Source: a virus. From it: a DNA stretch of 12,283 nt. Positions 273 through 11,495 of this stretch are shown piece after piece (position 1 is the first letter of the stretch; every line of letters begins with the position of its first letter). A model generated the notes under the pieces. It was not told the origin of the DNA, searched no databases, and worked only from the letters and a program-made list of their open reading frames with translations. Made by a program: the position numbers and the translations under genes. The stretch lies in UHGV virus genome UHGV-0153572; one strand, written 5' to 3'.

Positions 273-501
273 TTTTGGGAACATACAATGTAATTAAAAT
301 AGACCCAGCTTACCGCCCTGCACCTATTGAACACAAAGATGTTGAGAGGGAAAACCTCGTTTACGGATTTGAGCTTCCCATTGGTAGTTACCACGTTTGC
401 GTATAGTCGCCATTTCTGTCTGATTCCTAACGAACTGTGGCAATATTGTGGCAAAAAATCCATTTAAATTCGATAGGTATTGATTTTACAAGATCAATTT
501 A

Positions 502-550
502 CGCATTCGTAATGCGAAGGTCGTAGGTTCGACTCCTATTATCGGCACCA
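502..550 (+). tRNA. Orphan 3' fragment (49 nt) of a tRNA-Thr(CGU) gene (thrW-type): anticodon arm, variable loop, T-arm, 3' acceptor strand and CCA; putative prophage att core, not a complete tRNA
   Basis: Sequence CGCATTCGTAATGCGAAGGTCGTAGGTTCGACTCCTATTATCGGCACCA matches, from memory, the 3' two-thirds of enterobacterial tRNA-Thr(CGU), including the GGTTCGACTCC T-arm and terminal CCA. The 27 nt upstream (475-501) do not match the 5' acceptor/D-arm, so no cloverleaf can form. Confidence 0.8.
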
Positions 551-564
551 TTTAAATCAATAAG

Positions 565-1728
565 TTACACATCATTAGTACCTTCCTTATTTTTTGACTG
601 GGACAAATTTGGGACCGATGGGTTCAGGATCGAGTCTATTTGCCGTGCGTGTTCGGTAAGGTGATTAGGTGCAAGGTGAGCATATCGACGAACCATTTCG
701 ATAGACTCCCACCCTCCCATTTCCTGTAACACTGACAACGGGACTCCGGCTTGAACCAGCCAACTTGCCCAGGTGTGTCTCAAGTCGTGAAATCTGAAAT
801 CATCAATACCAGCCCGTCTCAGCGCCGCTTTCCAGGCTGTGTTTGCGTCATACCGCATCTTCCTTACTGTTGGCGCTTTCGTTCCGTCTGGTTTGGTACA
901 GCTTTCCTTGTACACAAATACCCAACGGTGATGATTCCCGATTTGTTTTTTCAATACGCGACATGCAGTATCATTCAGCGCAACGCCAATTGCGCGGTTT
1001 GATTTACTCTCTTCCGGGTTTATCCATGCCACCCGGCGCTGCATATCTATTTGTTGCCATTCAAGGTTGATGATGTTCGAGCGTCTTAAACCTGTTGCCA
1101 GTGCAAATTCAACAACAGACTTTAATGGCTCCGGACATTCATCAATCAGCCTTTGTGCTTCATGGGGCTCCAGCCAGCGGATCCGTTTATTCTTTGGTTG
1201 AGGCACTTTAATAATTGGTGCCTTATCCAGCATTTTCCATTCACGCTCTGCGGCTCTTAGTAGGGCCTTTATAAATGAAAGATGCGTAGCCTTCGTTGCA
1301 ACGGACGCTGGTTTTGGCGTGTATTCTGGAACAGGTTTCCCTTTTTTTCTGCATGCTTCTGCCCTGAGTTTCCAGTTTTCCTCATGACGCCGGTTCGTCA
1401 TTTTCTGCATTGCTGAATAAATTTTTGATTCAGTAATGTCTCTTAGTTGCATTCCTGCGAAATGTTGAAGCCAGAATCCGATCCGGCTTTTGTCATCGTC
1501 CAGTGATTTTTTATGTGCTTTCTCTTCAAGCCACCTGACACACGCTTCCTCGAACGTTATATCAGGTATTTCACCAAGTTTGCTGACCCGCCATGCTTCA
1601 GCCTTTAGCTTGTCATGGAGTTCTGTCGCCTGCCTTTTGTCCTTTGTTCCAAGAGACTGTTTAAATCTTTTACCGTTCGGCAATGTGAAACTGGCGTACC
1701 ATATTTCACCTCTGCGGAAGAGTGACAT
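565..1728 (-). CDS. int: Site-specific tyrosine integrase, phage P22 Int-type (387 aa)
   Basis: 387-aa ORF with ATG at 1728..1726 preceded by an AGGAAAG/GAGG Shine-Dalgarno. C-terminal catalytic signature of tyrosine recombinases ([39 protein letters not shown], with R...HxxR...Y). Length and N-terminus ([24 protein letters not shown]) resemble P22 Int as remembered. Its 3' end lies 15 bp from the tRNA-Thr att core. Confidence 0.93.
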
Positions 1729-1955
1729 TTTCTTTCCTCTGTTATGCCATCACCCGCGCTCACCTGGACAGTATGCAGCGGAGACTGAAGAGCCGCAATG
1801 CAGGCTTGTCGTGTTGTGAGGTAAGGAGATTTATTCTTAGTGGGATCTTTGCGTGTTGCCTGAAGACGCCCTGTGCGTATCCAGTTAATGGCAGTCGGTC
1901 TGGATATCTTGAGAAAATGACAGGCCTCATCGAGTGTGAGGCTGTATGGCTCCAT
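1605..1955 (-). CDS. xis: Excisionase (Xis), helix-turn-helix excisionase family, 116 aa
   Basis: ATG at 1955..1953 with GAGGTG Shine-Dalgarno 6 nt upstream. N-terminus [33 protein letters not shown] fits the excisionase/AlpA-type HTH pattern. It overlaps the int start by ~120 nt, as in P22 xis-int. The ORF-track entry 1605..2039 is trimmed to the internal Met with an RBS. Confidence 0.75.
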
Positions 1956-2260
1956 TATTTCACCTCTTGCTGTGACATTGTTGAAAAATGGATACCAGCT
2001 CGTTGCTGCCAGACGATCCAACCGAGAGTCATATCCCATGCCATGTATTCGTTATCGCCGTTTTTTGCTCTCCGACGATCTACTAAGTCACCGAAACGCT
2101 TTTCCATGAATAATTCATAAGCTTCGCGTTCATCTGGTTCTACTTCCAGCGATAGGAGTGCGATTTCATAAGCACGGCGCTCAATATCGTCTCGCACGTC
2201 AAGGCTGCTGATACGCTCTTTAATTTCTTTAATCAGTTCTTTGTCGGTAAAAGTGATCAT
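1955..2260 (-). CDS. Hypothetical phage accessory protein (101 aa), acidic, no recognised domain
   Basis: ATG at 2260..2258. Its TAA stop (1957..1955) overlaps the xis ATG (TAATG), indicating translational coupling within the leftward operon. Sequence MITFTDKELIKEIKERISSLDVRDDIERRAYEIALL... Confidence 0.55.
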   Translation of the reverse strand: MITFTDKELIKEIKERISSLDVRDDIERRAYEIALLSLEVEPDEREAYELFMEKRFGDLVDRRRAKNGDNEYMAWDMTLGWIVWQQRAGIHFSTMSQQEVK

Positions 2261-2622
2261 TATGCTCCAGCCTCCGGTGCTTTTGGCATTATTGCCCAGT
2301 GAGTGATATTGACGTTTTCAAGGTCCCCGACCTGAAATGTCCACAGCCATTCTCCGGTTTCTTTTTGTCCCCAGGTGTACCAGAGAGAACGCCAGCCAAT
2401 TAGCCAGCCTTCTCCGTTAGCATCAAATAACAAAACACTTTCATTTGCTGGTGGCAGTTCAGCTGACACTGGTATTACTTTGTTTTCCTGTGCTGCACAT
2501 TTAGCTTCAAGCGCATCGAATTTACGCACCAGGTATTCAGCATCTGTTTCATTTACTTTCAGATCTCGCGGTACACATCTCCCACGAAGAAACCCTTCCA
2601 TTTCGAAAACATTCATGCGCAT
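2260..2622 (-). CDS. DUF551-like phage protein (118-120 aa)
   Basis: C-terminal Trp-rich block WLIGWRSLWYTWGQKETGEWLW...ITHWAIMPKAPE resembles the DUF551 signature (...THWMPLPEPP) common in lambdoid early-left regions. Candidate starts are ATG 2622 or ATG 2616; the latter overlaps the stop of the upstream HD gene (ATGA). Its stop overlaps the next gene's ATG (TAATG at 2258-2262). Confidence 0.6.
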   Translation of the reverse strand: MRMNVFEMEGFLRGRCVPRDLKVNETDAEYLVRKFDALEAKCAAQENKVIPVSAELPPANESVLLFDANGEGWLIGWRSLWYTWGQKETGEWLWTFQVGDLENVNITHWAIMPKAPEAGA

Positions 2623-3149
2623 TTGCGTAACTCCGATAACTCGTTAAAACGTTCCATAAACATCCCGTAGGCATGGCCCGGTGCCTGTGGAATCACTTTG
2701 AACATCTCTGTTGCCGGGATACCTTCCAGTACAGGCCAGAAAGAGCCATCATCAAGCCCGAGATCGCGGCGTTCGGTTGCCAGCATAATGAGATCGGCAT
2801 ATTTCACTGGCGTGCTCATAACAGGAGGTAACCCGTATTTCTCACGTATTACGGCGTCTATTTTTTCTTCCATCCGTTTATAGTCAGGAAGAAGTCGTTT
2901 CAGTGGTGCGGGGATGTCCTGGCAATATGCTTCTGTTGCATCATGCATTAAAGCTTCAAAAGCAAATTCCTGTGGCACCAGCTGGCTGCAAAGCACCGCA
3001 TGTTGGGCGACACTGTAGAAGTGTGAAAGATGTCCTGCAAAGCGACAGATATTTGAAAGGGAAACCGCGATATCGTTAATAACGATGTCGTCTTTATTTA
3101 TCCTGTCATAATAAAAATGCTTCCCGGAAAAAGTTTTAATAAATGACAT
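2613..3149 (-). CDS. HD-domain metal-dependent phosphohydrolase (178 aa from ATG 3149; the ORF extends to a GTG at 3176)
   Basis: H...HD motif context (VAQHAVLCSQ ... EALMHDATEAY) and later acidic residues typical of the HD phosphohydrolase superfamily. ATG 3149..3147 has a GGAGA Shine-Dalgarno 5 nt upstream; the longer ORF-track version starts at GTG 3176 without an obvious RBS. Confidence 0.7.
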   Translation of the reverse strand: MSFIKTFSGKHFYYDRINKDDIVINDIAVSLSNICRFAGHLSHFYSVAQHAVLCSQLVPQEFAFEALMHDATEAYCQDIPAPLKRLLPDYKRMEEKIDAVIREKYGLPPVMSTPVKYADLIMLATERRDLGLDDGSFWPVLEGIPATEMFKVIPQAPGHAYGMFMERFNELSELRKCA

Positions 3150-3273
3150 TTTGTTCTCCACGTATATGCGCTGCACCGCGCTGAATTCGGGTAAAAGGAA
3201 GCCCTCACCGTCCGGCGATTATTGAGTCAATTACATTTCCATAAATGCCCCCGTAGGGGCGGTTAGTTTCTCC

Positions 3274-3362
3274 ACAAAACAGAGAAGAACACCTGCGGTG
3301 GCAGCCGCCCGGATGGATTGGGTTATGAGCCCGTCGTCCGGTGATGCTCTTCTCTGTTTTGT
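3274..3362. repeat. 15-bp perfect inverted repeat (ACAAAACAGAGAAGA at 3274-3288; TCTTCTCTGTTTTGT at 3348-3362) with a 59-bp spacer, in the divergent intergenic region
   Basis: Direct reading: reverse complement of 3274-3288 equals 3348-3362 exactly. Lies between the leftward (int-proximal) and rightward operons. A GC-rich hairpin (GCCCC-CGTA-GGGGC, 3247-3260) lies just upstream. Confidence 0.6.
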
Positions 3363-3407
3363 AAAAAGGACGGTATCCGCCTGACGGCTAATCAGGCATA
3401 TCACCAG

Positions 3408-3611
3408 ATGGTGAAGCTGGGGATCGTCGAGCAGCGCGAACGATACAGCCGTACCGCGATTAACAACATCAAAAAATTCTGGTCGCTGACAGCGAAAGGC
3501 TGCATGTTCGGCAAGAACATCACCAGTCCTGCAAATCCGCGCGAGACGCAGCCGCATTTCTTCGAATCCCGATTCCCTGAGCTGTTAAAGCTGCTCGATA
3601 CCGTTCATTGA
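3408..3611 (+). CDS. Possible small hypothetical protein (67 aa); weak call
   Basis: ATG ORF ending 1 nt before the start of the next gene; amino-acid composition is more protein-like than the overlapping minus-strand 108-aa ORF. No strong RBS identified; could equally be non-coding regulatory sequence. Confidence 0.25.
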   Translation: MVKLGIVEQRERYSRTAINNIKKFWSLTAKGCMFGKNITSPANPRETQPHFFESRFPELLKLLDTVH

Positions 3612-3612
3612 G

Positions 3613-4608
3613 GTGACCGTGAGAGCACTACTGACCCCTGAAATAGCCCCGCGTATGGGGATCGTATTGTTCAGACCCGGTTCAGAGCTGATGCCCCTGT
3701 TTATGCAGGGGCGTGTCCTGCTGGAGCCTGAGCCGGAACGTTATTCATCTTTCGCCAGTGGTGCCGTTCCCGCGGCATCACAACCGCTGGCGGATGATCC
3801 TGCCGTTCGAGCCGTGTTCTGCAATGAGGCAGTGATCCGTCGTGCTGGTGGCGTGGAATGTCTTGAAAGCTGGTTACTTCGTGAAAAGGGCTGTCAGTGG
3901 CCTCATTCCGACTGGCACAGCGAGAACATGACCACAATGCGACACGCGCCGGGCGCGATCCGTCTGTGCTGGCACTGCGATAACCAGCTGCGCGATCAGT
4001 TCACGGAACGGCTGGAATCAATGGCAACGGATAACTGTGCCCGCTGGGTGTTGTCTGTTGTGCGTCGGGATCTCGGTTTTGATGACAGTCACGTTGTGAC
4101 AATGCCGGAACTGTGCTGGTGGCTGATTCGTAATGACCTGGCGGATGCCTTACCGGAAAGTGCAGCCCGTAAGGCACTGAGATTACCGAAGCCTGTTGTG
4201 CCGTCTGTCACCCGGGAAAGTGACCTTGTGCCTTCGGTTCCTGCCACCAGCATCATCCAGGATAAGGCGAAAAAGGTGCTGGCGCTGAAAGTGGATCCGG
4301 AGTCGCCGGAGTCTTTTATGTTACGCCCAAAACGTCGCCGCTGGGTTAATGAAAAGTACACGCGCTGGGTTAAGACACAGCCGTGTGCATGTTGTGGAAA
4401 GCCTGCTGATGATCCCCACCACCTGATAGGCCACGGTCAGGGTGGGATGGGTACAAAAGCGCATGACCTCTTTGTGTTGCCTTTGTGCAGAAAGCATCAC
4501 GACGAGCTGCATGCGGATACCGTGGCATTTGAAGAGAAGTATGGCTCCCAGCTGGAGCTGATATTTCGTTTTATCGATCGTGCGCTGGCAATAGGCGTAC
4601 TGGCGTAA
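3613..4608 (+). CDS. DUF968-like phage protein with C-terminal HNH/zinc-binding nuclease-like motif (~330 aa)
   Basis: C-terminal CACCGKPADDPHHLIGHGQGGMGTKAHDLFVLPLCRKHHDELH has Cys pairs and HH...H spacing like HNH-type modules. Overall architecture resembles the DUF968 (YdfU-type) proteins of lambdoid nin regions as remembered. Start is GTG 3613, or GTG 3619 with a GAGGTG Shine-Dalgarno. Confidence 0.7.
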   Translation: MTVRALLTPEIAPRMGIVLFRPGSELMPLFMQGRVLLEPEPERYSSFASGAVPAASQPLADDPAVRAVFCNEAVIRRAGGVECLESWLLREKGCQWPHSDWHSENMTTMRHAPGAIRLCWHCDNQLRDQFTERLESMATDNCARWVLSVVRRDLGFDDSHVVTMPELCWWLIRNDLADALPESAARKALRLPKPVVPSVTRESDLVPSVPATSIIQDKAKKVLALKVDPESPESFMLRPKRRRWVNEKYTRWVKTQPCACCGKPADDPHHLIGHGQGGMGTKAHDLFVLPLCRKHHDELHADTVAFEEKYGSQLELIFRFIDRALAIGVLA

Positions 4609-4621
4609 GTGGAGAACGAGC

Positions 4622-5350
4622 ATGAACCTTGAAGCTTTACCAAAATATTACTCCCCAAAATCTCCAAAATTGAGTGATGACGCACCGGCGACAGGCTCGG
4701 GTGGTTTAACAATTACAGATGTGATGGCTGCGCAGGGGATGGTGCAGTCGAAAGCACCGCTTGGGTTTGCCTTATTCCTGGCAAAAGTTGGTGTTCAGGA
4801 TCCTCAGTTTGCGATTGAAGGTCTGCTCAATTACGCGATGGCACTGGATAACCCGACATTGAACAAATTGAGTGAAGAAATCCGGTTACAGATCATCCCT
4901 TACCTTGTGAATTTTGCCTTTGCTGATTATTCCAGGTCTGCGGCAAGTAAGGCTCGCTGTGAGCATTGTGCTGGTACTGGATTTCATAATGTATTGCGCG
5001 AGGTGGTGAAACACTCCAGAAGCGGGGAATCTGTTATCAAGGAAGAGTGGGTGAAGGAACTATGTCAGCATTGTCATGGTAAGGGAGAAGTCAGCACAGC
5101 GTGCAGAGGGTGTAAGGGTAAAGGTATTGTCCTGGATGAAAAAAGGACCCGGCTTCATGGCACGCCTGTTTATAAGATTTGTGGGCGTTGCAATGGAAAC
5201 CGATTTAGCCGTTTACCAACCACACTGGCGCGGAATCATGTCCAGAAGCTGGTACCAGACCTGCCGAAGATCTGGGAAAAGTCACTTTCCGCCCGTCCAT
5301 CACGGCTTATGTGGTGGGAGATGACTGCTTTGACCAGCGCGATCGCCTGA
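4622..5350 (+). CDS. Phage antitermination protein Q-like protein with DnaJ-type zinc-finger repeats (242 aa); C-terminus possibly chimeric
   Basis: ATG 4622 with GGAGA Shine-Dalgarno. Four CxxCxGxG-type motifs (CEHCAGTG, CQHCHGKG, CRGCKGKG, CGRCNGNR; nt ~4958-5191). Resembles, from memory, the Q-type antiterminators of E. coli lambdoid prophages that sit next to a DUF968 gene. The last ~30 codons overlap, in another frame, DNA homologous to the DNA-circulation gene. Confidence 0.65.
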   Translation: MNLEALPKYYSPKSPKLSDDAPATGSGGLTITDVMAAQGMVQSKAPLGFALFLAKVGVQDPQFAIEGLLNYAMALDNPTLNKLSEEIRLQIIPYLVNFAFADYSRSAASKARCEHCAGTGFHNVLREVVKHSRSGESVIKEEWVKELCQHCHGKGEVSTACRGCKGKGIVLDEKRTRLHGTPVYKICGRCNGNRFSRLPTTLARNHVQKLVPDLPKIWEKSLSARPSRLMWWEMTALTSAIA

Positions 5351-6465
5351 TTGACGCGCTGAATAAACCCGGTCCCGGCACGCTTGTCCACCCGACATAC
5401 GGTGAGTTGAAAGTCTGTGTTGACGGGGAAGTTCGGGTCAGCACATCGAAGAGTGAAGGGCGTATTGTCCGCTTTGACCTGAAGTTTGTCGAAGCGGGAG
5501 ATCTCTCTTACCCCACATCAGGCGTGGCGACGGCGCAGACGCTGATGTCATCCTGTTCTGCACTGGATGACTGCATCAGTGACAGCTTCAGCGGTTTCAG
5601 TATCGATGGCGTGGCAGATTTTGTGCAGAACGACGTCGTCGGTAATGTCGGCACAATGCTTGGGTATGTTTCTGATGCGATGAAAGTGGTGGATTCTGCC
5701 GTATCGGATGCCGCCAGGCTGTTGCAGGGGGATATCTCGGTACTTCTTCCGCCGCCATCGTCAGGCAAAAATTTCGTTGAGCAGGTGCAGAAAATGTGGC
5801 GTACCGGGAAACGCCTTTATGGTAACGCCAGCGACCTGGTCACCATGATCAAAACGCTTTCCGGTGTCAGCCTTGGCAGCGATCTGCAACCGCGCGGCGT
5901 CTGGAAAACGGACAGTAAAACCACCGCCACGGCGACGCAGCAGCGTAACGTGGTTGCCAGCACCCTTCGTACGACCGCAATCAGCGAAGCGGCGTATGTC
6001 GTCACACGATTGCCTGCGCCCACAACTTCCGCGGTGATGCAGAATGCCACAGTGGGGCAGTCAACAACACCCGCGCAGAGCACCGGCTGGCCTTCTGTCA
6101 CGCATCCGGCACTGAACAATGCACCGGCGGTGAAAAACACGGTTGACCTGCCAACGTGGGAAGAACTGACCGACATTCGCGACACACTGAATACGGCAAT
6201 TGATAAGGAGTTGTCCCGTACAACCAGTGATGCGCTGTTTCTGGTGCTGCGCCGGGTGAAAGCAGATCTGAATGCGGATATCAACACGCGCCTTGAACAG
6301 TCTGCACGGATCATTCAGCGCACGCCGGATGAGGTTTTACCCGCGCTGGTGCTGGCGGCGACCTGGTTTGATAACGCGGCGCGTGACGCGGACATTATCC
6401 GGCGTAATGCCATTACGCATCCCGGCTTTGTGCCGGTGATCCCTCTGAAGGTGCCAGTGCAATGA
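5311..6465 (+). CDS. Mu-type DNA circulation protein (gpN family), N-terminally truncated; possible pseudogene
   Basis: Contains the family block AYVVGDDCFDQRDRLIDALNKPGPGTLVHPTYGELKV. The frame is open upstream only to 5209 (in-frame TAG at 5206-5208) and similarity begins around AEDLGK (~5263). The first possible start is GTG 5311 with no RBS, so ~45-60 N-terminal residues of a typical homologue are absent. Confidence 0.75.
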   Translation: MVGDDCFDQRDRLIDALNKPGPGTLVHPTYGELKVCVDGEVRVSTSKSEGRIVRFDLKFVEAGDLSYPTSGVATAQTLMSSCSALDDCISDSFSGFSIDGVADFVQNDVVGNVGTMLGYVSDAMKVVDSAVSDAARLLQGDISVLLPPPSSGKNFVEQVQKMWRTGKRLYGNASDLVTMIKTLSGVSLGSDLQPRGVWKTDSKTTATATQQRNVVASTLRTTAISEAAYVVTRLPAPTTSAVMQNATVGQSTTPAQSTGWPSVTHPALNNAPAVKNTVDLPTWEELTDIRDTLNTAIDKELSRTTSDALFLVLRRVKADLNADINTRLEQSARIIQRTPDEVLPALVLAATWFDNAARDADIIRRNAITHPGFVPVIPLKVPVQ

Positions 6466-7541
6466 ACGACAATGTCACGCTACGGGTAAATGGCCGGGAG
6501 TGGAATGGCTGGACATCGGTGCGCATCGGTGCCGGTATTGAACGGCTGGCGCGGGATTTCAGTGTGGAGATCACCCGCCAGTGGCCGGGAGATGAGGGTA
6601 TCACCACGCTTCAGCCGCGCATTAAAAACGGTTCAAAAGTGGAAGTGCTGATTGGTGATGAGCTGGTGATCACCGGCTGGGTGGAGGCGACGCCCGTTCG
6701 TTACGATGCCCGTTCGGTCAGCACCGGTATTGCCGGACGTAGTCTGACGGCTGACCTGATTGACTGTGCAGCCGAACCGACACAGTTTAACGGACGCTCG
6801 CTGGTGCAGATTGCGCAGGCGCTTGCTGCGCCTTTCGGCATTGAGGTGGTGAACAGCGGTGCGCCGTCGGGTGTTATTCCTGATGTTCAGCCTGATCACG
6901 GTGAAACGGTGATTGAGGTAATAAACAAAATACTCGGTCAGCAGCAGGCGCTGGCTTACGACGACCCGCACGGCAGGCTGGTGATTGGCGGTATTGGCTC
7001 AACGCGGGCACATACCGCGCTGGTACTTGGGGAAAACATCCTTTCCTGCGATACGGAGAAGAGTATCCGGGAGCGGTTTTCTGTTTACCAGGTGGCGGGG
7101 CAGCGTGCCGGAAACGACGATGATTTCGGTGAGGTCACCACCACCGCGCTGCGGGCCCGCACAGAGGACGCATTTATTGCCCGTTACCGTCCGATGTATA
7201 TCAGGCAGACAGGGCAGGCCACGGGGGCAGGCTGTATTGCGCGTGCTGACTTTGAAGCCCGACAACGGGCGGCGCGGACGGATGAAACCACCTATGTGGT
7301 GCAGGGCTGGCGACAGGGTAACGGTACGCTGTGGCAGCCCAACCAGCGGGTGATTGTCTTTGATCCGGTCTGTGGTTTCGACAATACCGAACTGCTTGTC
7401 TCGGAAGTCACGTTTACTCAGGACCAGAACGGCACCCTGACGGAAATCCGTGTCGGCCCGCCTGATGCTTATCTGCCTGAACCCGAAGCCCCCGGCGCGC
7501 GGAAAAAGAAAAAAGCCAGAGTACAGGAGGACCCGTTCTGA
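6462..7541 (+). CDS. Mu gpP-type tail/baseplate protein (phage late control D / baseplate hub family), 359 aa
   Basis: ATG 6462 overlaps the upstream stop (ATGA). Size, position directly after the DNA-circulation gene and sequence character fit the Mu P / P2 gpD family. Part of a tightly overlapping operon. Confidence 0.8.
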   Translation: MNDNVTLRVNGREWNGWTSVRIGAGIERLARDFSVEITRQWPGDEGITTLQPRIKNGSKVEVLIGDELVITGWVEATPVRYDARSVSTGIAGRSLTADLIDCAAEPTQFNGRSLVQIAQALAAPFGIEVVNSGAPSGVIPDVQPDHGETVIEVINKILGQQQALAYDDPHGRLVIGGIGSTRAHTALVLGENILSCDTEKSIRERFSVYQVAGQRAGNDDDFGEVTTTALRARTEDAFIARYRPMYIRQTGQATGAGCIARADFEARQRAARTDETTYVVQGWRQGNGTLWQPNQRVIVFDPVCGFDNTELLVSEVTFTQDQNGTLTEIRVGPPDAYLPEPEAPGARKKKKARVQEDPF

Positions 7542-8089
7542 TGAGGACGATTGAAGCCATGCAGCGACAACTTCTCGGCCTGATTGCGCGGGCAGTGGTG
7601 AAAAGCATCAGTGCCGCCACGAAATGTCAGACCGTGGATGTGTCCCTGATTGCCGGTGAACCCAAAGCCGGGGTTGAACATCTTGAACCCTACGGTTTTA
7701 CCGCAAGGGCAAACAGCGGCGCGGAAGCGGTGGTGTTGTTTCCGGATGGCGACCGTTCTCATGCGGTGGTTGTTACGGTGTCGGACCGGCGCTACCGCCT
7801 GAAAGGGTTGCAGACGGGTGAGGTGGCTGTCTATGACGATCAGGGGCAGTCTGTGACGCTGACCCGGGAGGGGATCGTGGTGGACGGTGCAGGTAAAACG
7901 ATCACGTTTCGCAATTCACCTAAAGCACGTTTTGAAATGGACCTGGAAGTGACAGGACAGGTGAAAGACCTGTGCGACTCCAGCGGCACTACCATGTCAG
8001 CGATGCGGCTTGCCTATAACGGGCATCGTCACAGAGAGAACGGTCAGGGCAGTAACACCGACAAACCGGATAAAGCGATGGAGGCATGA
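7541..8089 (+). CDS. Baseplate assembly protein V-type (Mu gp45-like spike protein), 182 aa
   Basis: ATG 7541 overlaps the upstream TGA (TGATG), with an AGGAGG Shine-Dalgarno. N-terminal region MRTIEAMQRQLLGLIARAVVKSI...GEPKAGVEHLEPYGFTARA is typical of the phage baseplate V family. Confidence 0.8.
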   Translation: MRTIEAMQRQLLGLIARAVVKSISAATKCQTVDVSLIAGEPKAGVEHLEPYGFTARANSGAEAVVLFPDGDRSHAVVVTVSDRRYRLKGLQTGEVAVYDDQGQSVTLTREGIVVDGAGKTITFRNSPKARFEMDLEVTGQVKDLCDSSGTTMSAMRLAYNGHRHRENGQGSNTDKPDKAMEA

Positions 8090-8514
8090 TGGAACTGTGG
8101 CTGACGGTGAACGGTAAACGCACCTGCGCCAGCGCACCGCTGGATCCGCTGACCCGCGCCGTGGTGATTTCCCTGTTTACCTGGCGGCGGGCGGAGCCTG
8201 ATGACAACGCCGACGTCCCGATGGGATGGTGGGGGGATACCTGGCCTGCGGTACAGAATGACCGTTACGGCTCCCGACTGTGGCTGCTTCAGCGCAGCAA
8301 ACTGACCAATCAGCTGGTGCAGACAGTAAGGGGGTATATCCGCGAATGCCTGCAATGGATGATTGATGACGGCGTGGTGTCCCGTATTGATCTGGATATC
8401 CGCCGCACCGGGATTAATGAGCTGGGTAACAGTATCACCCTCTGGCGTCGTGACGGACCGGTAATGATTTCTTTTGATGATCTGTGGAGTGCGATAACGC
8501 ATGGCGGACAGTGA
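8086..8514 (+). CDS. Phage GP46-family baseplate protein (Mu gp46 / gpW-like), 142 aa
   Basis: ATG 8086 overlaps the upstream stop, with a GGAGG Shine-Dalgarno. Small protein in the conserved position between the V-type and J-type baseplate genes. Confidence 0.8.
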   Translation: MMELWLTVNGKRTCASAPLDPLTRAVVISLFTWRRAEPDDNADVPMGWWGDTWPAVQNDRYGSRLWLLQRSKLTNQLVQTVRGYIRECLQWMIDDGVVSRIDLDIRRTGINELGNSITLWRRDGPVMISFDDLWSAITHGGQ

Positions 8515-9559
8515 ATTTCAGCGCCCGACGCTGGCAGAAAATATCAGTATGCTCCGTAACGATTTATTCGCCAGGCTGGACGTCAGCGACACGCTCCGGC
8601 GCATGGATGAAGACGTGCGGGCAAAGGTGTATGCGGCGGCGCTGCATACGGTTTACGGGTACATCGATTATCTGGCAATGAACATGCTGCCTGACCTGTG
8701 CGATGAGTCCTGGCTGGCGCGACATGCTGCGATGAAACGGTGTCCGCGCAAGGGGGCCACGGCTGCCAGCGGGTATATGCGTTGGGAAGGTGTCAGCGAT
8801 GGCCTGAAGGTGACCGCCGGGAGTGTTATTCAGCGCGATGACCTGGTTCAGTACACGGCAACTGCCGATGCAACCAGCTCCGGTGGTGTCCTGCGCGTGC
8901 CGATCGCCTGCTCAAGTGCAGGCGCGGTCGGTAACGCTGACGACGGTACGTCATTAATCCTGGTCACGCCGGTTAATGGTCTGCCGTCTTCCGGCGTGGC
9001 AGATACCCTTACAGGCGGATTTGATACTGAAGAGCTGGAAACGTGGCGCGCCCGCGTCATTGAGCGGTATTACTGGACGCCTCAGGGCGGGGCTGACGGG
9101 GACTATGTCGTCTGGGCTAAAGAAGTGCCCGGCATTACCCGCGCATGGACATACCGTCACTGGATGGGAACGGGAACTGTCGGTGTGATGATTGCCAGCA
9201 GTGACCTGATTAATCCCATTCCGGAAGAATCAACGGAAACGGCAGCAAGACAACATATCGGGCCACTGGCCCCGGTGGCAGGCTCTGATTTGTATGTATT
9301 CAGGCCGGTGGCACATACGGTGGATTTTCATATCCGCGTGACGCCGGACACACCGGAAATACGGGCTGCCATTACCGCGGAGTTGCGTTCGTTCCTGCTG
9401 CGTGATGGTTATCCGCAGGGAGAACTGAAGGTATCGCGTATCAGTGAGGCGATTTCCGGTGCGAACGGGGAATACAGCCATCAGTTGCTTGCACCGGTGG
9501 ACAATATCTCCATTGCGAAAAACGAACTGGCGGTACTGGGGACGATTTCATGGACGTGA
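8501..9559 (+). CDS. Baseplate J-like protein (Mu gp47 family), 352 aa
   Basis: ATG 8501, overlapping the upstream gene by 14 nt. Size and synteny (after gp46-like, before the DUF2313 gene) fit the Baseplate_J family. Confidence 0.8.
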
Positions 9560-10134
9560 CAAACGATGATTACATCCGCCTGTTATCGGCACTGTTGCCG
9601 CCCGGTCCGGCGTGGTCAGCCAGCGATCCGGCGATTGCCGGTGCGGCACCGTCATTAACCCGTGTTCATCAGCGTGCGGATGCCCTGATGCGGGAGCTGG
9701 ATCCGCGCACCACCACTGAACTGATAAACCGCTGGGAGCGTCTGTGCGGTCTGCCGGATGAATGTATTCCGGCGGGAACGCAGACCCTTCGCCAGCGTCA
9801 GCAACGGCTGGATGCGAAGGTTAACCTGGCGGGCGGCATCAACGAGGATTTTTATCTTGCACAGCTTGCTGCCCTGGGCAGACCAGATGCCACCATCACG
9901 CGATACGACAAAAGCACGTTCACCTGCTCATCGGCCTGTACTGACGCGGTGAATGCGCCGGAATGGCGGTATTACTGGCAGGTCAACATGCCAGCCGCCA
10001 CCAACACCACCTGGATGACATGTGGCGATCCCTGTGATTCCGCACTGCGTATCTGGGGTGACACCGTTGTCGAGTGTGTGCTTAACAAACTCTGCCCGTC
10101 GCATACCTACGTAATTTTTAAATATCCGGAGTAA
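9550..10134 (+). CDS. DUF2313 tail protein (Mu gp48 / P2 gpI-like; YmfQ-type), 194 aa
   Basis: ATG 9550, overlapping the upstream gene by 10 nt. N-terminus [22 protein letters not shown]... and the Cys-rich C-terminus resemble, from memory, the YmfQ/DUF2313 proteins encoded immediately upstream of tail-fibre genes. Confidence 0.8.
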
Positions 10135-10137
10135 TCC

Positions 10138-10902
10138 ATGCATCGTATAGACACGAAAACCGCGCAGAAGGATAAGTTCGGCGCGGGTAAGAACGGTTTT
10201 ACCCGTGGTAACCCCCAGACCGGCACGCCTGCCACCGATCTGGATGATGACTACTTTGACATGTTGCAGGAAGAGCTTTGTGGCGTGGTGGAGGCATCCG
10301 GTGCCAGCCTGGAGAAGGGGCGGCATGACCAGCTGCTTACCGCGCTTCGTGCGCTGCTGTTAAGCCGCAAGAATCCGTTTGGCGATATCAAATCGGATGG
10401 CACCGTGAAAACGGCTCTCGAAAACCTTGGTTTGGGAGAAGGTGCTCCAGCTATTGGCGTTCCGTTCTTCTGGCCGTCCGCTGCAATGCCAAATACTGTA
10501 ATCGACAGCTGGTCCGGTATGGTGTTTTTGAAGTTCAACGGCGCGAAATTCTCTGCCACTGATTACCCTGTGCTGGCGAAAGTGTTTCCTTCGCTGGTAT
10601 TACCTGAAGCCCGCGGTGATTTCATTCGTATCTGGGATAATGGTCGTGGTGTAGATAGTGGACGTGGATTACTTAGTACGCAGTCTGACCTGATGAAACA
10701 ATTTACTTTGCAATACTACGGTCCTTCTGCTGGTACTGGAACAAGAACGGTTTTCGCCCTCCAGAGTAATGCGAACGGCATATATACGAGTGGTATTAGT
10801 CAGAATGATGGTAGTGGCACCGCTGCGGCTTTTAATGTACCAGGCGGCACCGAAACACGCCCACGTAACATTGCATTCAACTTTTTAGTAAGGGCTAAAT
10901 AA
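10138..10902 (+). CDS. Tail fibre protein (S-type): conserved N-terminal baseplate-attachment region plus variable C-terminal receptor-binding region, 254 aa
   Basis: ATG 10138 with GGAG Shine-Dalgarno. N-terminus [55 protein letters not shown] is the conserved tail-fibre constant region. Codons ~93-101 ([10 protein letters not shown]) are encoded by a Hin/Gin-type crossover-like site. The AT-richer downstream part is the variable region. Confidence 0.85.
10415..10440. other. Candidate Hin/Gin/Cin/Pin-family DNA-invertase crossover site inside the tail-fibre gene
   Basis: CTCTCGAAAACC-TT-GGTTTGGGAGAA: 26 bp with near-symmetric 12-bp arms around a central dinucleotide. It matches the remembered hixL (TTCTTGAAAACCAAGGTTTTTGATAA) at 19/26 positions and shares the AAACC/GGTTT core with gix. 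It sits at the constant/variable junction of the fibre gene, as gix does in Mu S. Confidence 0.55.
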
Positions 10903-11495
10903 TGAAACCTGTTTTTGATAAAAATGGGCTGGCTACAGTACCGGGTGATATGCGTTGTTTTTATTATGATGCAGTAACGTCTGAATATACTGGCTGGTCT
11001 GATGAATATATTAATACTGGTGTAAGTATGCCCGCCTGTTCCACTGGTATTGACCCGGGCGAATACATTCCGGGGAAAGTGGCAGTATTTACGGGTAAGG
11101 GATGGAGCCATGAAGAAGACCACCGCAATGAGACTGCTTACTCAATCGAAAATGGCGCAGCTGTTACAGTGGATTATATCGGTGCCATCAAAGACGGTTA
11201 TGTCACGCTTTCACCGTTAACGCCATACGATAAATGGGATGGTGAGAAATGGGTGACAGATACTGAGGCACAGCATAGTGCCTCAGTAGACGCGGCAGAA
11301 GCACAGCGCCAGTCGCTGATTGATGCTGCAATGGCTTCCATCAGTCTGATTCAACTGAAATTGCAGGCCGGGCGGAAGCTGACGCAGGCAGAAACAACCC
11401 GACTTAACGCCGTGCTGGATTACATTGACGCGGTGACGGCAACAGATACCAGCACCGCGCCGGATATCATCTGGCCTGAACAGCCGGAGGCGTAG
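10902..11495 (+). CDS. Tail fibre assembly chaperone (Tfa / Mu U-type), 197 aa
   Basis: ATG 10902 overlaps the tail-fibre stop (TAATG). N-terminus [36 protein letters not shown] and C-terminal DTSTAPDIIWPEQPEA are characteristic of the Tfa family. Confidence 0.9.
   Translation: MKPVFDKNGLATVPGDMRCFYYDAVTSEYTGWSDEYINTGVSMPACSTGIDPGEYIPGKVAVFTGKGWSHEEDHRNETAYSIENGAAVTVDYIGAIKDGYVTLSPLTPYDKWDGEKWVTDTEAQHSASVDAAEAQRQSLIDAAMASISLIQLKLQAGRKLTQAETTRLNAVLDYIDAVTATDTSTAPDIIWPEQPEA

Follow-up and report, generated by a model that had tools for sequence, protein, structure and literature searches.

Orthologues of yfdS and yfdT upstream of xis in a partly deleted prophage: mosaic accessory proteins with a possible link to DnaA-dependent initiation

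The yfdR-to-int gene string and its junctions

The window, by which we mean the whole 12,283-nucleotide stretch of the virus genome UHGV-0153572 that was analyzed, contains a contiguous string of five genes on the minus strand. Their order, yfdR > yfdS > yfdT > xis > int, is read directly from the open reading frames. The two small genes in the middle of the string, encoding 120 and 101 aa, lie exactly where the first-pass annotation had placed them. The genes, their junctions, and the site of a deletion are as follows.

2613–3149, minus strand: yfdR (178 aa), HD-domain 5'-deoxynucleotidase, upstream gene of the string; PHROG 318 at 2e-110
2260–2622, minus strand: yfdS orthologue (120 aa), open reading frame with start ATG at 2620–2622; PHROG 583 full length
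1955–2260, minus strand: yfdT orthologue (101 aa), open reading frame; PHROG 660 at 7e-30
1605–1955, minus strand: xis (116 aa, P22-type excisionase); PHROG 2907 full length at 1e-50, Pfam HTH_17
565–1728, minus strand: int (tyrosine integrase), last gene of the string; Pfam Phage_integrase at 3e-48
2613–2634, minus strand: yfdR/yfdS junction, ATGCGCATGA at 2622–2613, yfdR stop TGA at 2613–2615, GGAG at 2631–2634
2258–2275, minus strand: yfdS/yfdT junction, TAATG at 2258–2262 (CATTA on the plus strand), yfdS stop at 2262–2260, yfdT ATG at 2260–2258
1953–1966, minus strand: yfdT/xis junction, TAATG at 1953–1957 (CATTA on the plus strand), yfdT stop TAA at 1957–1955, xis ATG at 1955–1953
3363–3384, no strand: deletion junction, about 6.1 kb lost relative to the intact prophage of strain H8; collinearity ends here and then resumes

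The start assigned to xis is that of the 116-aa P22-type protein, in agreement with the full-length match to PHROG 2907 and with the RefSeq annotation. It overlaps the yfdT stop, and the 3' end of xis overlaps int by 124 nt. The int gene adjoins a remnant of the thrW attachment site, and a tRNA-Thr gene is adjacent in strain H8. YfdR has the start given in RefSeq and also gives weak Pfam matches to YfbR-like and HD_3. No RNA family was found in the window with Rfam, and no tRNA with ARAGORN.

The suggestion that the HD gene, the DUF551-like gene, the 101-aa gene, and xis are linked by overlapping stop and start codons holds. The four genes are contiguous and co-oriented, and their overlaps and internal Shine-Dalgarno sequences are compatible with translational coupling. 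The overlaps measure 10 (or 4), 1, and 1 nt, and GGAG or GAGGTG lies 4–8 nt before each start, an arrangement that has the structural features of coupling. The Shine-Dalgarno sequences of yfdT (GGAG at 2265–2268 and GGAGG at 2271–2275) are spelled by the last codons of YfdS (PEAGA), and that of xis (GAGGTG at 1961–1966) by the last codons of YfdT (QEVK). The ATGA proposed for the yfdR/yfdS junction is real, at 2616–2613, but it belongs to the third codon of yfdS and arises from an alternative ATG at 2614–2616. The longer start at 2622, which has GGAG 8 nt upstream (2631–2634) and is annotated in RefSeq and in K-12, gives an overlap with yfdR of 10 nt rather than 4. From this arrangement we infer translational coupling along yfdR-yfdS-yfdT-xis. 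RNA folding around the three junctions is not distinctive (z −0.24, −0.64, and −1.87), with no clear occlusion of a start.

The overlaps are nevertheless largely ordinary. Among the late genes of the same window (5311–11495), six of seven junctions also overlap, by 1–14 nt; the pattern in the yfdR-xis string is therefore no more than expected by chance for a phage and is generic among phage operons. K-12, SfII, SfV, and Kati have identical junctions, with the exception of the K-12 xis start, where ATG has become ATA. In IMG/VR, the yfdS/yfdT junction is identical in 78 of 80 loci and the yfdT/xis junction in 77 of 80, but these loci are 99–100% identical overall and do not constitute independent support for junction conservation.

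Identity and domain make-up of YfdS and YfdT

Judged by sequence, the two small genes correspond to yfdS and yfdT, which are known from a prophage of E. coli K-12 and from the Shigella phages SfII and SfV. YfdS shares 114 of its 120 residues with K-12 YfdS (95%) and is 97.5% identical to SfV orf29; its match to PHROG 583 covers residues 1–120 of 120 (E 1e-81). YfdT shares 96 of 101 residues with K-12 YfdT (95%) and is 99% identical to SfV orf28 and SfII gp32. Identity extends over the full length in both cases. yfdS lies directly downstream of yfdR with the same 10-nt overlap as in K-12, and yfdT lies directly downstream of yfdS with the same TAATG junction. The neighboring YfdR is 98% identical to its K-12 counterpart (174 of 178 residues), and the int-yfdR DNA is 98.9% identical to that of SfII. 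Describing the two proteins as uncharacterized was thus an overstatement, as both genes are named and have genetic data (Noguchi & Katayama 2016; for yfdS also Wang 2010, with H2O2). RefSeq lists yfdS orthologues under the names yfdS, DUF551, or phage protein.

Poor conservation in related prophages, which had been raised as a possible objection, was looked for and not found. Of 5426 complete E. coli genomes, 3879 match some part of the 1.8-kb int-yfdR stretch and 1107 match at least 80% of it. The protein clusters of YfdS and YfdT have about 1000 members each, and both genes are present in the functional phages SfII, SfV, SfIV, and Kati. Across K-12, SfV, Kati, and SKA5, dN/dS is 0.12–0.20 for yfdS and 0.10–0.14 for yfdT, values that indicate purifying selection on both genes.

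Each protein can be divided into two parts.

2485–2622, minus strand: YfdS N-terminal module (aa 1–46); residues 1–25 predicted disordered, 28–46 predicted helix (AF2)
2263–2484, minus strand: YfdS C-terminal domain (aa 47–120); divergent DUF551, all-beta, 5 predicted strands, 7 Trp
2135–2260, minus strand: YfdT N-terminal module A (aa 1–42); predicted helical hairpin, AF2 helices 6–19 and 25–39
1991–2134, minus strand: YfdT core domain (aa 43–90, about 48 residues); predicted helix, beta-hairpin, helix (AF2)

YfdS, an acidic protein (pI 4.77), is a mosaic of an EaE-type N-terminal module and a divergent DUF551 domain, a composition that is newly described here. The N-terminal module is common to P22-type EaE and HK620 HkaH proteins. 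PHROGs 614 and 14548 match residues 1–50 only, and tblastn finds matches to residues 2–44, annotated EaE, in P22-like, HK620, and Stx phages. The DUF551-like character proposed for the 120-aa protein is borne out for its C-terminal domain. The score against Pfam DUF551 (PF04448) is a marginal miss (21.0 bits where the cut-off is 22; E 6e-4, profile positions 3–68 of 68), and hhalign of the YfdS family with 13 canonical DUF551 segments supports homology (probability 96.4%, E 1.2e-9, 61 columns). W109, P113, and P116 are invariant across the YfdS-family and canonical DUF551 sets. The AF2 strands of this domain span residues 49–111 at pLDDT 73–83. In many other prophages, the YfdS-type C-terminal domain is fused to Ead/Ea22 N-domains.

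YfdT is likewise a mosaic, also new here, of an EaA/Ea22-type N-terminal module and a core of about 48 residues. In line with the first-pass annotation, the protein is acidic (pI 4.84) and has no match in the Pfam copy used. Many longer mosaic proteins of the EaA/Ea22 type begin with module A. PHROGs 5117, 60, and 3323 match residues 1–50 only, representative proteins of 60–264 aa have only residues 1–43 in common, and tblastn finds matches to residues 1–42, annotated EaA or Ea22, in Stx phages. The core follows the consensus PDERxAFExFMxxRFGDxIDRRRAKNGDxEYMAWDMxVAWIVWQxRA, with nine residues invariant in the alignment. It is carried, at any position, by 104 of the 131 representatives listed, in proteins of 66–448 aa, and has thus been shuffled through at least 104 protein clusters. 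Among 103 core-containing representatives, it is fused to DUF551 in 16, to Ead_Ea22 in 3, and to a dATP/dGTP pyrophosphohydrolase (PF04447) in 2. The core also occurs in Acinetobacter, where the fusion to DUF551 is found, and in Pectobacterium, Klebsiella, Pseudocitrobacter, and Entomohabitans.

Neither the Pfam copy used, NCBIfam, nor the PDB profile search gave a match to the YfdT core. A precomputed table attaches PF26207 to Cronobacter relatives, but the Pfam copy used matches neither these proteins nor YfdT with that family. One hit (P0241, 3652 aa, 32 matched stretches) was discarded as a repeat-protein false positive. NCBIfam gave no family for YfdS or YfdT. Ead_Ea22 (PF13935) gave no Pfam match at E ≤ 0.01 in either protein and is present in relatives that carry the YfdS C-terminal domain or the YfdT core (in the case of the core, P0258).

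Structure prediction yielded moderate AF2 models, with pLDDT 75 and 65 for the two proteins. Sequence searches of solved structures with YfdS, YfdT, and the YfdT core profile gave nothing below E 0.1. In fold searches against the PDB, neither model had a significant analogue; the best E value was 0.83 for the YfdS model and 0.97 for the YfdT model, for which BFVD returned only unnamed viral relatives. Tudor, SH3-like, and Hfq barrels recurred as weak matches to YfdS (TM-score normalized to the target 0.45–0.56) and were not taken as evidence. No mechanism can be read from the predicted folds.

Expression in the window and possible functions

In blastn comparison with the sequence L001, window positions 502–3384 align with 10003–12885 and positions 3363–4616 with 19017–20274. 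The deletion of about 6.1 kb at this point takes out cI and cro, the promoters pL and pR, and the replication genes, with the H8 annotation as reference. The prophage in the window has lost its immunity region, its replication genes, and most of its late genes. The gene yfdQ (DUF2303) is also absent, as the SfV segment containing yfdQ and orf32 (4762–6053 of L004) has no counterpart. The window thus holds yfdR, yfdS, and yfdT of the YfdQRST inhibitory set, without yfdQ. A promoter scan found no sigma-70-like site on the minus strand between 400 and 3700, and none upstream of yfdR on that strand. The first-pass annotation had deduced stoichiometric co-expression from the leftward promoter. Co-expression of this kind cannot be shown in the window because pL, cI, and yfdQ are deleted and the region 400–3700 has no sigma-70-like site on the minus strand; furthermore, overlapping codons do not imply stoichiometric co-expression. 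Since yfdQ, cI, and pL are missing, the yfdRST module in the window is orphaned and probably poorly expressed and incomplete.

The published work on the K-12 proteins bears directly on function. Multicopy yfdQ and yfdR together with either yfdS or yfdT inhibit DnaA-dependent initiation at oriC, a yfdS frameshift shows that the protein itself is needed, and extracts containing YfdQRST inhibit oriC replication in vitro (Noguchi & Katayama 2016, PMC4776307). Only YfdR was found to bind DnaA; neither YfdS nor YfdT was seen to interact with DnaA or with YfdR. On domain I of DnaA, YfdR makes contact at Phe46, the residue equivalent to the one that SirA contacts. Deletion of yfdQRST left initiation unaffected, and the authors allow for an overexpression artefact (PMC4776307). 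Separately, deletion of yfdS leads to H2O2 sensitivity (Wang 2010, PMC3105296). The earlier guess that small early-left proteins of this kind act on host factors fits the K-12 multicopy initiation data (PMC4776307).

On balance, we favor the reading in which the YfdS and YfdT orthologues are mosaic early-left accessory proteins that help YfdQ and YfdR restrain DnaA-dependent initiation. Both are small, acidic, probably non-enzymatic proteins of SfII/SfV/CPS-53-type lambdoid phages, encoded in the early-left part of the genome with the recombination genes on one side and xis on the other. A single leftward transcript would carry the genes in an intact phage, and ribosomes may pass from gene to gene. 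Experiments on the 95%-identical K-12 proteins suggest that YfdS and YfdT could serve as interchangeable helpers that, with YfdQ and the DnaA-binding HD protein YfdR, would restrain DnaA-dependent initiation at oriC. The purpose would probably be host takeover or the slowing of growth early after infection or induction. Both proteins probably act through weak protein contacts, because neither bound DnaA or YfdR stably. Weighing against this reading, the K-12 phenotype is seen only with multicopy supply and depends on yfdQ, a gene that both the window and SfII lack; in addition, no promoter was identified in the window.

A rather unlikely alternative is that YfdS and YfdT, drawn from the same mosaic pool as the exo-xis/ea genes, are Ea22-type modulators of the choice between lysis and lysogeny, whose acidic C-terminal domains bind a host protein other than DnaA and tilt the outcome to lysogeny or to a later induction, oxidative stress being one possible setting. 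Many prophages join the DUF551-like domain of YfdS to Ead/Ea22 N-domains. In Ea22 variant V2, the C-terminal domain is DUF551, and acidity is common to Ea22 C-terminal domains (PMC10834534) and to YfdS and YfdT. The H2O2 sensitivity of the yfdS deletion (PMC3105296) is in line with this possibility, and exo-xis genes are reported to affect lysogenization and H2O2-mediated induction. However, neither protein carries the Ead_Ea22 domain, and the sole direct genetic data point to replication initiation.

Somewhat less likely still, the YfdT core and DUF551 could be alternative, sometimes fused, adaptor domains within a single shuffling system of gammaproteobacterial prophages, both docking on the same target, either a host replication factor (e.g., DnaB or DiaA) or YfdR. 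A shared target would account for the interchangeability of the unrelated YfdS and YfdT in the K-12 assay, as well as for the presence of both domains in one chain in 16 of 103 core-containing clusters. If this were the case, the core would define a new family of domains by which phages modulate replication initiation. A hidden homology of YfdS and YfdT behind their redundancy was considered and rejected: BLASTP aligns only an NG..W..W motif (E 0.31), and the hhalign probability is 0.1%.

We regard as improbable a role in counter-defense or superinfection exclusion, in which the proteins would block a system of the host or of a rival phage and their shuffling would reflect an arms race. Their extreme mosaicism, variable accessory location, and acidic charge would suit such a role, as would the nucleotide-pool enzymes with which they are combined in a few relatives (yfdR adjoining, the PF04447 pyrophosphohydrolase fused). 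Yet PADLOC defense models gave no family at E ≤ 0.01 for YfdR, YfdS, or YfdT, there is no structural likeness to any solved protein, and literature searches turned up no evidence.

Two further explanations have very little to recommend them. That yfdT serves mainly as an upstream reading frame setting Xis translation through the TAATG overlap, its protein being secondary, would be in keeping with the xis start on the yfdT stop, the Shine-Dalgarno sequence within the last yfdT codons, and a weak hairpin (z −1.87) in which the xis start region pairs with a part of yfdT about 30 nt upstream, but K-12 yfdT is intact at dN/dS 0.10 though the xis that follows is destroyed (its ATG changed to ATA, with ypdJ as the remnant), more than 100 clusters conserve the core in contexts lacking xis, and P22-like phages have the same xis behind a 211-nt gap. 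Equally hard to sustain is the idea that yfdS and yfdT are decaying, functionless remnants of a dead prophage: despite the loss of the immunity region, replication genes, and most late genes and the many frameshifted or fused variants in databases, both open reading frames are intact with dN/dS 0.10–0.20 (K-12, SfV, Kati, SKA5), the genes occur in functional SfII, SfV, SfIV, and Kati, and the K-12 genetic phenotypes depend on the proteins (PMC4776307).

The practical value of these results lies in annotation. The names yfdS and yfdT are the right ones for the two open reading frames, which are not unknowns, and nothing special should be read into the overlap pattern; a large share of E. coli and Shigella genomes carries the gene set. 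The favored role as helpers of YfdR and YfdQ raises a modest question, namely how two unrelated proteins replace each other in restraining DnaA. The domain map (YfdS head and DUF551, YfdT head and core, core-DUF551 fusions) provides constructs for pull-downs and structural work.

Comparison with known systems

The closest systems are K-12 CPS-53 (KplE1) with YfdS (b2362) and YfdT (b2363), SfV with orf29 and orf28, and SfII with gp33 and gp32, all in the same order yfdR-yfdS-yfdT. Full-length identity is 95% to K-12 and 97–99% to SfV, and the yfdR/yfdS and yfdS/yfdT junction sequences are identical to theirs. The K-12 string lies in an argW-side prophage, comes after yfdQ, and closes with the xis remnant ypdJ and torI. 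In contrast, the window represents a thrW site where an intact P22-type xis and int follow, and yfdQ is lacking, as in SfII.

Lambda P, which acts on DnaA, and the cellular analogue SirA of B. subtilis provide a functional comparison, since the YfdQRS/T set likewise lowers DnaA-dependent initiation (PMC4776307). Unlike such inhibitors, YfdS and YfdT do not themselves bind DnaA, and their contribution is seen only in multicopy (PMC4776307).

The YfdS C-terminal domain has the same motifs as lambdoid-phage proteins of Pfam DUF551 (PF04448), I-x-[VC]-S-x-x-[LM]-P and T-H-W-x-x-[LM]-P. Like DUF551, including that of the Stx-phage Ea22 variant V2, it is portable and usually C-terminal (PMC10834534). 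Its mid-domain, GEGWLIGWRSLWYTWGQKETGEW, differs from canonical DUF551 as a distinct, nearly invariant Trp-rich version. For YfdS and YfdT alike, neither sequence nor fold searches matched any PDB entry, the solved lambda Ea22 C-terminal domain included.

The exo-xis proteins of lambda and Stx phages (Ea22, Orf60a, Orf61, Orf63, and Orf73) and P22 EaA and EaE come from the same early-left operon site by xis-int. In mEp460, VT2-Sakai, and SE1, the place of yfdS and yfdT is that of the exo-xis/ea accessory genes. These proteins are likewise small, acidic, mosaic, and non-essential, whereas YfdS and YfdT lack the Ead_Ea22 coiled-coil domain. The N-terminal modules are literally shared, that of YfdS with EaE and that of YfdT with proteins annotated EaA or Ea22.

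Identity of the small genes and their junctions

The two small proteins encoded next to xis are, with near certainty, YfdS and YfdT, known from the E. coli K-12 prophage CPS-53. The 120-aa protein is identical to K-12 YfdS at 114/120 residues and the 101-aa protein to YfdT at 96/101, while the neighboring HD protein matches YfdR at 174/178. The first-pass annotation had regarded both as uncharacterised; the genes are in fact already known and named, and K-12 data on them have been published. The gene string comprises the following features.

565-1728, minus strand: int (integrase), downstream flank
1605-1955, minus strand: xis (excisionase), 116 aa, downstream flank of the small ORFs
1955-2260, minus strand: yfdT ORF, 101 aa
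2260-2622, minus strand: yfdS ORF, 120 aa
2613-3149, minus strand: yfdR, HD-domain gene, upstream flank (coordinates from the annotated ATG)

Over the 1.8 kb between int and yfdR, identity is 98.9% with Shigella phage SfII, about 98% with SfV and SfIV, and 99.9% with thrW prophages in many E. coli genomes. The latter are annotated as yfdR, yfdS, yfdT, HTH protein (xis) and integrase, with 'DUF551 domain-containing' or 'phage protein' as alternative labels for yfdS. Among 5426 complete E. coli genomes, 3879 contain DNA resembling some part of this stretch, and 1107 have at least 80% of it. The small ORFs are real genes, conserved in related prophages: dN/dS (Nei-Gojobori) is 0.10-0.14 for yfdT, 0.12-0.20 for yfdS and 0.04-0.07 for yfdR, measured against K-12 and phages Kati and SKA5 in small, mutually consistent samples of 13-26 substitutions per comparison.

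The overlapping stop and start codons reported for the HD gene, yfdS, yfdT and xis were confirmed. The plus strand reads CATTA at 1953-1957 and 2258-2262, corresponding to TAATG on the coding strand, so that one base is common to stop and start at both sites. The ATGA motif described at the yfdR/yfdS junction does exist (2616-2613), but a 10-nt overlap is more likely than one of 4 nt, because the ATG at 2622 has a GGAG 8 nt upstream and is annotated as the start in RefSeq and K-12; the coding strand over 2622-2613 is ATGCGCATGA. The yfdR/yfdS and yfdS/yfdT junction sequences are unchanged in CPS-53. The Shine-Dalgarno of every downstream gene is encoded in the final codons of the gene before it, namely the terminal PEAGA codons of YfdS for yfdT (GGAGGCTGGAGCA) and the terminal QEVK codons of YfdT for xis (CAAGAGGTGAAA). 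However, such overlaps are not unusual, since overlaps of 1-14 nt also occur at six of the seven late-gene junctions of this window (5311-11495). Nor do overlapping codons imply the 'stoichiometric' expression that had been proposed. RNA folding at the yfdR-yfdS-yfdT-xis junctions is unremarkable, apart from a weak hairpin at 1910-2010 (minus strand) in which the xis start codon and spacer pair with yfdT about 30 nt upstream (MFE -26.4 kcal/mol, z -1.87; 5/200 shuffles as stable). The int/xis overlap (1605-1728) amounts to 124 nt, read in different frames, and agrees with the annotation of P22-type int-xis modules in SfII and SfV; a shorter int start in H8 RefSeq reduces it to 79 nt.

Modular composition of YfdS and YfdT

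YfdS and YfdT are each two-module mosaics. In YfdS, PHROGs 614 and 14548 match residues 1-50 alone, and residues 2-44 resemble the N-termini of EaE/HkaH from P22-like, HK620 and Stx phages (tblastn). Residues 47-120 match DUF551-type PHROGs, with Pfam DUF551 itself just below threshold (21.0 vs 22 bits). Aligning the YfdS-family profile with 13 canonical DUF551 segments (96.4% probability, E 1.2e-9) identifies this domain as a divergent DUF551, in keeping with the earlier DUF551-like label. The same domain is joined to Ead/Ea22 N-domains or other heads in other prophages. The AlphaFold2 model (pLDDT 65, weaker than that of YfdT) predicts a disordered N-terminus, helix 28-46 and, at 49-111, a beta domain of five strands (pLDDT 73-83); Foldseek gave no significant PDB match (best E 0.83). 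Tudor, SH3-like and Hfq barrels recur weakly among these matches, a lead rather than a result.

Residues 1-42 of YfdT form the N-terminus of many longer Stx-phage proteins annotated EaA or Ea22. The segment that follows, the YfdT core (43-90), is strongly conserved, with nine residues invariant across 28 diverse sequences and the consensus PDERxAFExFMxxRFGDxIDRRRAKNGDxEYMAWDMxVAWIVWQxRA. Across 1.84 billion representative proteins, an exhaustive HMMER search returned 336 clusters at E <= 0.001, and 104 of the 131 listed representatives contain the core in N-terminal, middle or C-terminal position, in proteins of 66-448 aa. A Pfam scan of 103 core-bearing representatives found DUF551 in 16, Ead_Ea22 in 3, dATP/dGTP pyrophosphohydrolase in 2 and none in the rest. 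Prophage regions of Klebsiella, Pectobacterium, Pseudocitrobacter, Entomohabitans and Acinetobacter encode the core as well, in one Acinetobacter case as a fusion to DUF551. Neither the local Pfam copy nor NCBIfam has a model for it. Cronobacter relatives (P0384, P0388-P0410; 82-98 aa), with an N-terminal core and a C-terminal segment of about 35 residues, carry the precomputed label PF26207, a family absent from that Pfam copy. In the Entomohabitans (L011) and Klebsiella spallanzanii (L013) loci, two of the 103 representatives, the core lies downstream of a fused PF04447 dATP/dGTP pyrophosphohydrolase, a second link, besides the neighbor yfdR, of these modules to nucleotide-hydrolysing enzymes. 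The moderate AlphaFold2 model (pLDDT 75, pTM 0.47; 48-sequence alignment) predicts a helical hairpin at 6-39, a core of helix 44-59, hairpin 64-74 and helix 75-87, and a disordered tail. Foldseek gave no significant match in the PDB (best E 0.97) and only unnamed viral relatives in BFVD.

Many of these mosaic proteins end in purine-rich tails (QEVK, QEVNRG, QGEKQ, EGGNG, KDGDA), and a QE[VAG]-type tail is present in 30 of 104 core-containing representatives. The tails were noted at 1958-1969 and 2263-2277 of the window and in representative proteins P0240-P0370. On the simplest reading of these sequences, they would be ribosome-binding sites (Shine-Dalgarno) of the next gene; the conserved tails may also be recombination joints between modules.

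A prophage remnant at thrW

The prophage in the window is a remnant. Its collinearity with the thrW prophage of E. coli H8, which is intact, extends over 502-3384 and resumes about 6.1 kb farther along, at the gene preceding DUF968.

3363-3384: deletion junction, from comparison with the H8 thrW prophage, about 6.1 kb missing

This deletion takes out cI (ymfK-like), cro, pL/pR and the replication genes, and fuses the DNA upstream of yfdR to the 3' end of a LexA-like or KilA-N region gene by DUF968 (3613-4608). The yfdQ gene is absent from the window, as it is from SfII, and what the locus retains of the YfdQRST set is an orphaned fragment. Because pL/pR are deleted and no sigma-70-like promoter was found upstream of yfdR on the minus strand, the suggested co-expression from the leftward promoter fits the ancestral phage, not this locus. 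The earlier interpretation is partly supported.

A second large deletion lies at about 5300-5350 (within 4622-6465), with lysis, terminase, head and tail-tube genes gone. Here the ORF for antiterminator Q (4622-5350) leads into a Mu-type DNA circularisation protein (5311-6465) that has lost its N-terminal part and matches only Pfam profile positions 55-88, at residues 2-35. It is followed by Mu-type baseplate genes (homologues of gp44 to gp48), one tail fibre gene and two tail-fibre assembly genes. At the left end, the first 470 or so bases correspond to the 5' portion of a site-specific integrase of another island, present in 95 E. coli genomes. Of tRNA-Thr only the 3' 49 nt remain, at 502-550, and ARAGORN detected no tRNA in the window. 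The foreign integrase part and the tRNA-Thr remnant suggest two elements in tandem at thrW.

Possible function and relation to other phages

On the best-supported reading, YfdS and YfdT are mosaic accessory proteins of the early-left operon, laid out for coupled translation. By analogy with the K-12 orthologues, they may help YfdQ and YfdR, each in place of the other, to restrain DnaA-dependent initiation. In multicopy, K-12 yfdQ and yfdR together with yfdS or yfdT inhibit initiation; the set did so as well in dnaAcos, seqA, diaA and wild-type cells, and also in vitro, and a yfdS frameshift indicated that the YfdS protein matters (PMC4776307). DnaA is bound by YfdR alone, via domain I Phe46; stable binding to either DnaA or YfdR was not seen for YfdQ, YfdS or YfdT. 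Deletion of all four genes was without effect, and the authors allowed for an overexpression artefact (PMC4776307). The helper role is put forward tentatively, since it rests on a multicopy phenotype. Hidden homology between YfdS and YfdT was rejected, their sequences being unrelated; their interchangeability in the K-12 assay is thus not due to homology.

That the proteins play an Ea22-like part in choosing between lysis and lysogeny, or in the oxidative-stress response, is unlikely, if worth naming. DUF551 has been described in an NMR study of Ea22 as a portable domain of the mosaic exo-xis region, present in Stx-phage Ea22 variant V2 and YfdS (PMC10834534), and Wang et al. found lower H2O2 survival after yfdS deletion (PMC3105296). 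It is doubtful that the YfdT core and DUF551 serve a single host replication factor as alternative adaptors, and counter-defence or exclusion is more improbable still. There is very little to favor yfdT as a leader frame for Xis: it is under purifying selection in K-12 although the xis behind it is dead, the ATG overlapping the yfdT stop now being ATA, with the first 57 nt of xis alone kept before torI. K-12 ypdJ (8095-8235 of locus L003) is a remnant of the same P22-type xis. Plain decay is equally remote, given the dN/dS values and the intact copies in functional phages.

The analysis adds a domain map, including the ~48-residue YfdT core, which lacks a local Pfam model and is repeatedly fused to DUF551, and the recognition of the locus as an orphaned YfdQRST fragment. 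In mEp460, VT2-Sakai and SE1, the same modules occupy the same place, the early-left accessory region by xis and int. Their combinations differ among these phages, but the packing is always tight.
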